Origin: Escherichia coli
GTDB taxonomy: Bacteria; Pseudomonadota; Gammaproteobacteria; Enterobacterales; Enterobacteriaceae
Direction: 5' to 3' (one strand)
Assembly: GCF_003334355.1 (NCBI RefSeq)
Contig: NZ_QOWP01000022.1
Length of the DNA stretch: 64,000 nucleotides
Of this stretch, positions 1 to 42,838 are shown piece after piece; the stretch's first letter is position 1, and each line of letters starts with the position of its first letter. Position numbers and translations under genes: made by a program. The notes beneath the pieces were generated by a model, which ran no database searches, was not told where the DNA came from, and saw only the letters and a list, made by a program, of their open reading frames with translations.

Positions 1-55
1 TTTTTCGTCTTGCGACGTTAAGAATCCGTATCTTCGAGTGCCCACACAGATTGTC

Positions 56-75
56 TGATAAATTGTTAAAGAGCA
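56..75 (-). promoter_or_regulatory. rrnH: rrnH leader boxA antiterminator (minus-strand TGCTCTTTAACAATTTATCA)
   Basis: Seen in sequence: reverse complement of 56-75 matches the rrn boxA consensus; lies downstream of the P1/P2 promoters in the direction of transcription (toward position 1). Confidence 0.6.
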
Positions 76-112
76 GTTGCGACGCGGCTTTCAGCTCACT
101 GTCGCGAGGTGG

Positions 113-140
113 CGTATATTACGCTTTCCTCTTTCAGAGT
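113..140 (-). promoter_or_regulatory. rrnH: rrnH P2 promoter (-35 TTGACT, -10 TAATAT on minus strand)
   Basis: Seen in sequence: minus-strand TTGACT (135-140) and TAATAT (113-118) with 16-bp spacing; the arrangement is typical of rrn P2. Confidence 0.55.
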
Positions 141-224
141 CAACCCTGAATTTCAGGATTTTTCTCTTCAACCGAACCGGCTGTTTGTGTGAAGTGATTC
201 ACATCCGCCGTGTCGATGGAGGCG

Positions 225-280
225 CATTATAGGGAGTCGTCTCAGGAAGACAAGTGGAAAAATGCATTTTTATTTCAATC
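225..280 (-). promoter_or_regulatory. rrnH: rrnH P1 promoter with AT-rich UP element
   Basis: Seen in sequence: minus-strand -35 CTTGTC (248-253), 16-bp spacer, -10 TATAAT (225-230), GCGCCTCC discriminator, and an AT-rich UP-like tract (254-280). Established knowledge: this is the rrn P1 architecture. Confidence 0.65.
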
Positions 281-296
281 GCTCATCTTTTAATCA

Positions 297-869
297 TTAT
301 GCCGGTTTTTGCTGCTTTTTTATCGCTTGCGGCAGGTCTGCCAGGCTATTTAACACCCAATCCGCCGCGTTTTCTGCTTCAGGCGTAATAGGTTTACCCG
401 TACGCACCAGCACTTTTGTTCCCACGTTCGCCGCAGCCGCTGCCTGCATATCTTCTAATTTATCGCCCACCATATAAGAAGCGGCCATATCAATATGCAA
501 ATAATCGCGTGCTGACAAAAGCATCCCCGGATGTGGTTTACGGCAGTCGCAGACCTGGCGAAACTCTTCAACACTACCCTGCGGATGATGCGGGCAATAA
601 TAGATACCATCCAGATCGACATCTCGGTCCGCCAGCGACCAGTCCATCCACTCGGTCAGCGTTTCAAACTGTGCTTCGGTAAATTTACCGCGAGCAATGC
701 CAGACTGGTTGGTTACTACCACCAGCGCAAAGCCCATTTTTTTTAGCTCGCGCATGGCGTCAATAACACCGTCGATAAATTCAAAGTTGTCGATCTCATG
801 GACATAGCCGTGATCGACATTAATGGTGCCATCACGGTCAAGAAAAATTGCGGGTACGCTCTTTGCCAC
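297..869 (-). CDS. gmhB: D,D-heptose 1,7-bisphosphate phosphatase (HAD superfamily)
   Basis: ORF track, 190 aa; HAD motif FLDRDGTIN near the N-terminus; sits between rrnH and metN as in K-12. Confidence 0.93.
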
Positions 870-958
870 CTTTTATAGCTCCTTAATAAGGCATGTGACG
901 CTAGTATCGCATGTTTCGACCTGCAAGAAAGTGCTCTTCGCATAAACCTGATTGATTT

Positions 959-990
959 AGACGTCTGGATGCCTTAACATCCATTTCATT
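959..990. promoter_or_regulatory. MetJ operator: tandem 8-bp met boxes upstream of metN
   Basis: Seen in sequence: AGACGTCT GGATGCCT TAACATCC ATTTCATT, four contiguous 8-mers with the first a perfect metbox, about 70-100 bp upstream of the metN start. Confidence 0.55.
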
Positions 991-1056
991 GACGGCGTTG
1001 CCCGTTTCAGGCATTCGAGATGCCACGACTAACTTAATGACGATAATAAATAATCA

Positions 1057-2088
1057 ATGATAAAACTTTCGAATATCACCAAAGTGTTCCACCAGGGCAC
1101 CCGCACCATCCAGGCGTTGAACAACGTCAGCCTGCATGTGCCAGCTGGACAAATTTATGGCGTTATCGGTGCCTCAGGCGCGGGTAAGAGTACGCTTATA
1201 CGTTGTGTAAACCTGCTGGAGCGCCCAACCGAGGGTAGCGTGCTGGTCGATGGCCAGGAACTGACCACGCTGTCAGAATCCGAGTTGACCAAAGCTCGCC
1301 GCCAGATTGGTATGATTTTCCAGCATTTTAACCTGCTCTCTTCGCGTACTGTTTTTGGCAACGTGGCTCTGCCGCTGGAGCTGGACAACACACCGAAAGA
1401 CGAGATCAAACGTCGCGTGACGGAATTGCTGTCATTGGTTGGTCTTGGCGATAAGCATGATAGCTACCCATCGAATCTTTCCGGTGGGCAGAAACAGCGT
1501 GTGGCGATTGCCCGTGCGTTAGCCAGCAATCCCAAAGTATTGCTGTGTGATGAAGCCACCAGCGCGCTGGACCCGGCAACGACACGTTCTATTCTCGAGC
1601 TGCTGAAAGACATTAACCGCCGTCTGGGTTTGACGATTCTGTTGATCACCCACGAAATGGACGTTGTAAAGCGTATTTGTGATTGCGTGGCGGTCATCAG
1701 CAATGGCGAACTGATTGAGCAGGACACGGTAAGTGAAGTGTTTTCGCATCCGAAAACGCCGTTGGCGCAGAAGTTTATTCAGTCGACCCTGCATCTGGAT
1801 ATCCCGGAAGATTACCAGGAACGTCTGCAAGCGGAGCCATTCACTGACTGCGTGCCGATGCTGCGTCTGGAGTTTACCGGTCAGTCGGTCGATGCCCCAC
1901 TGCTTTCTGAAACCGCGCGTCGTTTCAACGTCAACAACAACATTATTAGCGCGCAGATGGACTACGCCGGTGGCGTTAAGTTCGGCATCATGCTGACTGA
2001 AATGCACGGCACACAACAAGATACGCAAGCCGCCATTGCCTGGCTGCAGGAACACCATGTAAAAGTAGAGGTACTGGGTTATGTCTGA
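1057..2088 (+). CDS. metN: D-methionine ABC transporter ATP-binding protein
   Basis: ORF track, 343 aa; Walker [13 protein letters not shown] signature LSGGQKQR, Walker [12 protein letters not shown]; C-terminal regulatory domain. Confidence 0.96.
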
Positions 2089-41367: not shown

Positions 41368-42792
41368 TTACTGCATTAACAGGTAGATGGTGCTGTCGCC
41401 GCGCTGAATGTTGAGTGCCAGCACAGACGGTTTGCTGTCGAGAACTTTACGCAGTTCAGCGATGTTTTTCACTGCCTGCTGGTTCGCGCCAATAATCACA
41501 TCACCTTTCTTCAGGCCGATCTGCGCAGCCGGAGTGCCCGTTTTCACGTTGTTCACTACCACGCCCTGATCTTTGCCTTTGTTGCTCATCTCAGCGCCTT
41601 CAATGCCGTTGAAGATGGAGCTGGAATCAACCTGATTCTGGCTGCTCTGCTGCAGTTCCAGGTTCACGTTAACCTGCTTACCGTCGCGCAGTAAGCCCAG
41701 GGTCAGTTTGCTGCCTACCGGCATAGTACCCACCTGAGCACGCAGTGCGGCAAAGCTGCTGATCGGCTTACCGTTCAGTGAGGTGATCACATCACCCGCT
41801 TTAATGCCCGCTTTTGCAGCGGAGGAATTAGGCAGAACCTGGCTTACGAAAGCACCGCGCTGGGCGTCAACTTTCATCGCTTTCGCCAGTTCGGAGTTCA
41901 GCTCAGTCCCCATAATACCCAGCTCACCGCGTTTCACCTGGCCGTATTCCACCATCTGCGAGGTCAGGTTTTTCACCATGTTACTCGGGATAGCAAAACC
42001 GATACCGATGTTGCCGCCGTCCGGTGCGAGGATCGCGGTGTTGATACCGATCAGTTCGCCGTTCAGGTTAACCAGCGCACCACCGGAGTTACCACGGTTG
42101 ATCGCTGCATCGGTCTGGATGAAGTTTTCGTAGTTTTCGGCATTCAGGCCGCTACGCCCCAGCGCAGAGACAATCCCGGAAGTTACCGTCTCGCCCAGAC
42201 CAAACGGGTTACCAATCGCTACGGTGTAATCACCCACGCGCAGTGCATCAGAATCCGCCATCTTAATTGCGGTCAGGTTTTTCGGGTTCTGGATTTGGAT
42301 CAGCGCGATATCAGAGCGCGGATCTTTGCCAACCATCTTCGCGTCGAACTTACGGCCATCGCTCAGTTGAACTTTAATGACCGTCGCGTTATCAACAACG
42401 TGGTTGTTGGTGACGACATAGCCTTTATCGGCATCAATGATGACGCCGGAACCCAGCGCCATGAATTTCTGTTGCTGGCCGCCACCATTACCGCCCTGGC
42501 CACCCTGGCAGAACGGAGAGCTCTGGAACGGAGAACCTTCCTGGCAGAACGGAGAATCATCACCGAAGAACTGCTGGAAATTACGCGGCATACGCGGCGT
42601 ATTAACGGTTGTGCTACCTTCTACGTTAATGCTGACCACTGAAGGCATCACCTTTTCGAGCATCGGTGCAAGGCTTGGCATCTGCTGGGCTGTCGTTGCT
42701 GAAGAAGTCTCAGCCGCCGTTGCAGAGAGCGGAGATAACGCCAAACCTAAACTCAGAGCCAGTGCACTCAGTGCTAATGTGGTTTTTTTCAT
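41368..42792 (-). CDS. degP: Periplasmic serine endoprotease/chaperone DegP (HtrA)
   Basis: ORF track, 474 aa; signal peptide; catalytic Ser motif GNSGGAL; two PDZ domains. Confidence 0.97.
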   Translation of the reverse strand: MKKTTLALSALALSLGLALSPLSATAAETSSATTAQQMPSLAPMLEKVMPSVVSINVEGSTTVNTPRMPRNFQQFFGDDSPFCQEGSPFQSSPFCQGGQGGNGGGQQQKFMALGSGVIIDADKGYVVTNNHVVDNATVIKVQLSDGRKFDAKMVGKDPRSDIALIQIQNPKNLTAIKMADSDALRVGDYTVAIGNPFGLGETVTSGIVSALGRSGLNAENYENFIQTDAAINRGNSGGALVNLNGELIGINTAILAPDGGNIGIGFAIPSNMVKNLTSQMVEYGQVKRGELGIMGTELNSELAKAMKVDAQRGAFVSQVLPNSSAAKAGIKAGDVITSLNGKPISSFAALRAQVGTMPVGSKLTLGLLRDGKQVNVNLELQQSSQNQVDSSSIFNGIEGAEMSNKGKDQGVVVNNVKTGTPAAQIGLKKGDVIIGANQQAVKNIAELRKVLDSKPSVLALNIQRGDSTIYLLMQ

Positions 42793-42838
42793 GTATTTCA
42801 GTCTCGATTAACAGATAACGCAAAATTGCTGTGTTCTT

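Follow-up and report, generated by a model that had tools for sequence, protein, structure and literature searches.

The P1 and P2 promoters of rrnB are the experimental paradigm for the control of rrn transcription in E. coli. Fis binds upstream of rrnB P1 at three footprinted sites, centred at -71 (site I), -102 and -143, and a 2001 study by Hirvonen et al. is said to have covered Fis and the UP element at all seven rrn P1 promoters. A literature search returned no paper in which rrnH and gmhB are paired, and the term rrnH P1 was met in one preprint only, which gives no site coordinates. The rrnH core promoter has been used merely as a part (PMC6501063). The authors of PMC6312700 suggest that rrnH may owe its relative up-regulation under nutrient limitation to interactions that are comparatively strong with Fis and weak with H-NS. 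The main text of a Fis and H-NS ChIP study (PMC3064808) carries no rrn data.

The window, i.e. the whole stretch of Escherichia coli DNA analysed here, is 64,000 nucleotides long. We conclude, with a probability of about 97%, that positions 1-296, read on the minus strand, are the control region of the ribosomal RNA operon rrnH. The feature is already known, as the promoters belong to a textbook class, among the best studied in biology, and every E. coli genome has this locus annotated. Its identification draws on sequence identity, element positions, conservation and flanking genes, and no observation speaks against it. Positions 1-900 match many E. coli chromosomes, that of ATCC 8739 for instance, with 100% identity, and a match at 80% coverage or more of this segment was found in 5420 of the 5426 complete genomes, with gmhB annotated beneath it. 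The window ends 70 nt short of the 16S rRNA gene, and the downstream gene order was read from the identical genomes and from K-12. In ATCC 8739 the 16S gene starts 70 nt past window position 1, at the upper end of the 60-70 nt that a first-pass annotation of this DNA had forecast, and it is followed by tRNA-Ile, tRNA-Ala and 23S; the opposite flank carries metQ-metI-metN. The equivalent locus of K-12 is annotated gmhB-rrsH-ileV-alaV-rrlH-rrfH-aspU-dkgB. With gmhB inside the window, the rRNA and tRNA genes next to it in the 1-900-identical genomes and in K-12, the gmhB-metNIQ genes upstream and the alignment to K-12 rrnH, the initial assignment of the segment to the rrnH promoter and leader was borne out. 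So were the individual elements it named (P1, its UP element, P2 and boxA), each recovered on the minus strand by promoter scan, boxA search or alignment of rrn operons. No tRNA gene was found in the 64-kb window.

The promoter scan returned 5 promoter-like sites in positions 1..1100, compared to 1.6 ± 1.5 in shuffled sequences. The -10/-35 spacing on which the early assignment depended held on re-inspection, being 16 bp in both P1 and P2. The P1 core promoter, delimited by the scan and by the rrn alignment, occupies 253..218 on the minus strand. It consists of a -35 hexamer TTGTCT (253..248), a 16-bp spacer and a -10 hexamer TATAAT (231..226), with 10 of the 12 hexamer bases matching the consensus, followed by the G+C-rich discriminator GCGCCTCC (225..218, minus strand). 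In the alignment, the seven K-12 rrn P1 promoters all shared CCCTATAATGCGCC without change, in the -10 and discriminator region. Two weak promoter-like matches, one per strand (1072..1043, minus; 1020..1047, plus), were also seen around the divergent gmhB/metN intergenic region (870-1056), and the same region holds a terminator-like hairpin on the plus strand (966-983).

The transcription start of P1 was placed in the register of rrnB P1, where +1 lies 9 nt after the -10 hexamer. It would thus be the A at position 217 (minus strand), 286 nt upstream of mature 16S rRNA. The rule yielded a G for rrnD P1, and an A for the window, for K-12 rrnH and for rrnA, rrnB, rrnC, rrnE and rrnG, in agreement with the established starts (G at rrnD P1, A at the others). 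P1 combines what is found at rrn P1 promoters, namely a TTGTCN/TATAAT pair with a suboptimal 16-bp spacer, a GCGC discriminator and a probable purine start. Immediately upstream, the segment TGAAATAAAAATGCATTTTTC (277..257, minus strand, around -60 to -40) aligns with the UP elements of rrnB, rrnA and rrnC. With 17 A+T among its 21 positions it has the composition of an rrn P1 UP element, and it is nearly unchanged among the Enterobacteriaceae homologues; by analogy with rrnB P1, it would act as such at rrnH P1. The palindrome AAAAATGCATTTTT within it was considered as a terminator and rejected, being too A+U-rich in a region that folds no better than shuffled sequences.

Fis sites were sought with a heuristic that scores 15-bp segments up to a maximum of 16, for G at -7, C at +7, Y-4/R+4, R-3/Y+3 and an A/T core. 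When applied to rrnB P1, it recovered the footprinted sites at -71 (score 15), -102 (13.5) and -143 (16). Upstream of rrnH P1, on the minus strand, a site I-type match, GATTAAAAGATGAGC (295..281), scored 15 out of 16; its centre at -71 is in the register of rrnB P1 site I, and it is non-coding, as it begins 1 nt past the gmhB stop codon. Farther upstream, GCAGCAAAAACCGGC (315..301, centre -91, score 12.5) overlaps the final gmhB codons, and GGGTGTTAAATAGCC (358..344, centre -134) reached 16 out of 16 within the gmhB codons for W-V-L-N-S-L. A further Fis-like match, GCCTGGCAGACCTGC, is centred at -122 (346..332, score 12). As motif matches, the predicted sites at -71, -91 and -134 reproduce the rrn P1 arrangement, in which a site at -71 is accompanied by others upstream, and they lie where Fis sites had been expected from the outset. 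Scores of 15 or more occurred 59 times in the 64 kb. The -134 site is a perfect match to the strict consensus GNNYRWWWWWYRNNC, one of 12 in the 64 kb; with 10.1 matches expected by chance, this consensus is not enriched window-wide, so a motif match counts for little by itself, and the case for the -134 site rests on position and conservation. Fis binding at -71, -91 and -134 is best read as a prediction.

To assess conservation, one-genome-per-species contigs were scanned for the P1 -10 region, a gap of 195-225 nt, and the gmhB codons for GDKLEDM. The gmhB-P1 junction was found in this way in 70 species, from genera that include Escherichia, Salmonella, Citrobacter, Enterobacter, Leclercia, Pantoea, Erwinia, Pectobacterium, Serratia and Rouxiella; together with the window, this makes 71 junctions. 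The matched stretch, which begins at the GDKLEDM codons and reaches the -10 region of P1, was 247 nt long in 51 of the 71 and 246-248 nt in 69, where 230-260 nt was allowed. The gmhB stop codon itself shifts between -80 and -93 across the junctions, by point changes. Fis scores of 13 or more peaked at exactly three positions, the same three as predicted in the window: -71 (92% of the 71 junctions), -91 (54%) and -134 (63%), over a background of 1.7%, with another 15% of junctions reaching this score at -133. At the -71 site, the G at -7 and the C at +7 were each present in 67 of the 71 junctions, the A residues from -3 to -1 in 62-69 and the purine at +4 in 70, and the N positions of the motif varied freely. 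Conservation at -71 thus mirrors the Fis motif.

For the sites that overlap gmhB the reading is less direct. Conservation at -134 is confounded, because the site encodes the conserved peptide DWV(I/L)NSLA. Synonymous positions were compared in up to 51 in-register sequences, which are phylogenetically related. The Lys codon that provides the G at -7 of the -91 site was AAG in 38 of 38 sequences, compared to 65-98% AAA for the other Lys codons. The Leu codon giving the C at +7 of the -134 site was CTN in 51 of 51, and the Val codon at its R-3 position ended with a purine in 47 of 51. Some further gmhB codons were unusually uniform as well. These counts are suggestive only of synonymous sites being constrained in a Fis-compatible direction.

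The gmhB coding sequence spans 869..297 on the minus strand (190 aa, stop codon TAA at 299..297), as given by the open reading frame list and by the RefSeq annotation under the 100%-identical matches; its product is D-glycero-beta-D-manno-heptose 1,7-bisphosphate 7-phosphatase. The stop codon ends at -80, and 43 bp separate it from the P1 -35 hexamer, so that the upstream region of P1 does abut the 3′ end of gmhB, as the first-pass annotation had it. The accompanying idea that gmhB transcription converges on P1 has to be abandoned: both are on the minus strand, in tandem, and gmhB reads toward P1 from behind. The placement of the P1 activating region on the end of gmhB was right in part. It applies to the distal Fis-like sites at -91 and -134, but not to site I and the UP element, which lie in the 43-bp gap. 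With so short a gap, the distal portion of the predicted Fis-binding region falls within the last ~60 bases of gmhB.

These last ~60 bases may then have a dual use, as the GmhB C-terminus and as the distal Fis region of P1, and this might have frozen the spacing in at least four families of Enterobacterales. We put this forward as a tentative proposal, with appreciably less than even odds. If it is true, a corollary is that gmhB has no dedicated terminator and that its transcription continues into rrnH. What gives the locus its interest is the near single-base constancy of the gmhB-P1 spacing across many Enterobacterales, together with Fis-like sites that overlap the coding end of gmhB; the junction would be a small and clean example of regulatory sequence embedded in the coding end of a neighbouring gene.

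How gmhB transcripts end bears on another account of this tight tandem, in which the arrangement is itself regulatory: a terminator-less gmhB would read into P1 and occlude it, or would acquire its 3′ end through rrnH processing. Between gmhB and P1, the promoter/terminator scan detected nothing terminator-like on the minus strand, and the 106-nt segment that covers the end of gmhB and P1 contains no stable hairpin (z = +1.2 compared to shuffled sequences). A terminator between the two was thus rejected as a candidate, and this is what such a reading would ask for. Two further observations agree with it, as the K-12 Term-seq data (PMC7815308, supplement) place no RNA 3′ end in the interval that separates the gmhB stop codon from P1, and as the junction spacing is nearly fixed in 70 species. 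However, a missing Term-seq peak is weak evidence for an mRNA of low abundance, and the absence of a hairpin is explained equally well by Rho-dependent termination or by Fis or polymerase acting as a roadblock at P1; read-through, Rho and a roadblock at P1 are all possible ends for the gmhB transcript. Moreover, as gmhB expression is weak relative to that of rrn P1, its effect on P1 should be negligible, and coding constraint combined with the phasing of Fis sites is a simpler account of the fixed spacing. We consider a regulatory role of the tandem arrangement unlikely.

Downstream of P1, the second promoter, P2, was found by promoter scan at 143..116 on the minus strand, with TTGACT as the -35 hexamer (143..138), a 16-bp spacer and TAATAT as the -10 hexamer (121..116). 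This is the TTGACT-16-TAWTAT form of rrn P2 promoters, and its -35 hexamer begins at +75 of P1, as it does in rrnE. Transcription from P2 is expected to start ~6-8 nt downstream of the -10 hexamer. P2 is identical across rrnD, rrnE and rrnH, and the P2 -35 hexamer and the segment TTGACTCTG at P2 were invariant in all seven K-12 operons. Adjoining the P2 -35 hexamer, the rrn alignment disclosed a perfect 13-nt palindrome, CCTGAAATTCAGG (157..145, minus strand), which among the seven aligned K-12 operons is confined to the rrnD/rrnE/rrnH class of leaders. As RNA, it would form a hairpin of -12.8 kcal/mol (z = -3.3). A run of T follows this palindrome on the plus strand, where it was flagged as terminator-like.

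Next come the elements of the anti-termination leader, all on the minus strand: a boxB-type hairpin GCGAC...GUCGC at 105..79 (predicted fold of -13.5 kcal/mol), an exact match to boxA, TGCTCTTTAACAA, at 75..63, and a boxC-like G+T-rich segment, TGTGTGGG, at 48..41, which lies in a stretch invariant in the seven operons. The succession is thus that of an rrn anti-termination leader, i.e. hairpin, exact boxA, G+T-rich box. The boxA was the sole match in the 64 kb, even with one mismatch allowed, for a chance expectation of 0.09, and everything from boxA to 16S was invariant in the alignment of the seven K-12 rrn operons. K-12 coordinates were converted by subtracting them from 223702 to give the window position, and the conversion was checked against a flanking sequence from the Term-seq data. 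An RNase III cut reported at 223653 in the K-12 gmhB-rrsH spacer (PMC5371410) falls in this way at window position ~49, and the 5′ strand of the 16S processing stem was mapped to 49..1 (minus strand). The K-12 Term-seq supplement (PMC7815308) also lists an RNA 3′ end at 223637, inside the boxA of the rrnH leader (window position 65), and a further one 5 nt before mature 16S.

Taken together, and with the start sites, the binding of Fis and of the alpha C-terminal domain and the regulation at rrnH all transposed from rrnB and from general knowledge, the control region would work as follows. RNA polymerase carrying sigma-70 would initiate at two tandem promoters, P1 and P2, as rrnB homology suggests. 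P1, with its near-consensus core, 16-bp spacer and G+C-rich discriminator, would be the growth-rate-regulated and stringently controlled one. It would be boosted by contacts of the alpha C-terminal domain with the A+T-rich UP element, and stimulated by Fis dimers at -71 and farther upstream. The G+C-rich discriminator, together with an open complex of short lifetime, would be the means by which ppGpp/DksA and the initiating NTP regulate this promoter. P2, ~110 bp downstream of P1, would supply basal expression. The boxB-boxA-boxC transcript would load the Nus-factor anti-termination complex, at boxA, and allow polymerase to traverse the 5-kb operon, and RNase III would cleave the leader near window position 49.

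The leader could also be taken for something else, since a cmscan search matched the Rfam model RF02849 (Ysr197, Yersinia sRNA 197) to 300..53 on the minus strand with 143.7 bits and E = 2.4e-36, in an end-to-end alignment (model positions 1-254). This would make the stretch an independent small RNA of the Ysr197 family, beyond its role as an rRNA leader, and the RNA 3′ end within boxA does indicate that short leader fragments exist in K-12. Against this, the score falls short of the 167 bits set as gathering threshold for the family, and the model also matches the six other K-12 rrn control regions, with 78-117 bits, all below 167 too. In addition, the match takes in 83 bp of DNA that lie ahead of the P1 start and are not transcribed from P1. 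As all seven control regions match, including DNA upstream of the P1 start, RF02849 appears to describe the rrn promoter and leader region itself. An independent Ysr197 RNA is very improbable, and was rejected on account of its sub-threshold score and of the matches to all rrn control regions. Elsewhere in the window, Rfam matches above the gathering threshold were obtained on the minus strand for the CssrA sRNA (32882-32991), the t44 RNA (33830-33916) and the HtrA 5′ UTR thermometer (42787-42832).

The control region of rrnH was then compared to its K-12 allele. The K-12 gmhB-rrsH intergenic region (223409-223770) is the same locus, with the same gene order. Over window positions 1..239 there is not a single difference, and over 240..299 there are 4 SNPs (window allele first): A/C at -23, A/G at -38, A/G at -62 and T/C at -82. 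Half of the 8 SNPs that distinguish the window from K-12 in 1..1056 thus fall in these 60 bp around P1 (240-299). The SNP at -82 affects the end of gmhB. The TAA stop of the window (299..297) is CAA in K-12, where a TGA follows 3 nt on, so that K-12 GmhB is one residue longer. The K-12 gmhB sequence accordingly ends at -77, with a TGA stop that shares bases with the beginning of the predicted Fis site I. The exact 83-nt allele of the window was found in ~500 of the 5426 genomes.

Among the other rrn operons, rrnE is identical to rrnH over the stretch that begins with the P1 -10 hexamer and ends with the boxB hairpin. Both rrnD and rrnE share with rrnH the P2 region, including the palindrome CCTGAAATTCAGG, but differ from it in their upstream activating regions and upstream neighbours. 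The leader alone cannot name the operon, given this identity to K-12 rrnE and the near identity of the window to rrnD from P2 onwards. That the region might belong to another operon such as rrnE, or to a recombinant hybrid, draws on these resemblances, but it has practically no chance of being correct, as upstream of the P1 -35 hexamer rrnH is the sole match among the seven aligned K-12 control regions, the gmhB-metNIQ flank is that of K-12, and the window-identical genomes have Ile and Ala spacer tRNAs like K-12 rrnH: synteny rules it out for practical purposes.

Compared to rrnB, the rrnH control region has the same tandem promoters with 16-bp spacers, the same CCCTATAATGCGCC at P1 and TTGACTCTG at P2, an A+T-rich UP element, a Fis-type site in register at -71, and an identical sequence from boxA to 16S. 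Differences are found at the P1 -35 hexamer (TTGTCT in rrnH, TTGTCA in rrnB), at the discriminator and start (GCGCCTCC-A instead of GCGCCACC-A), and at the distal Fis-like sites, which are at -91 and -134 in rrnH, whereas those of rrnB are at -102 and -143. In rrnH, P1 and P2 lie 9 bp closer together than in rrnB, and the P2 -10 hexamer reads TAATAT where rrnB has TATTAT. A boxB hairpin is present at the equivalent place in rrnB, but its stem sequence is unlike that of rrnH.

The upstream neighbours differ from one operon to another. At rrnD the upstream gene, yrdA, is divergent, as is the upstream gene of rrnC. The 600 bp that precede rrsE carry no annotated gene. At rrnG P1, the upstream gene clpB ends at -152 and a terminator hairpin is visible, and hemG ends at -86 of rrnA P1. 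Like rrnH, rrnB has a co-directional upstream gene, murI, that stops ~80 bp before the P1 start (at -82). With hemG and murI similarly close to rrnA and rrnB P1, the compact layout seen at gmhB and rrnH is not peculiar to this operon.
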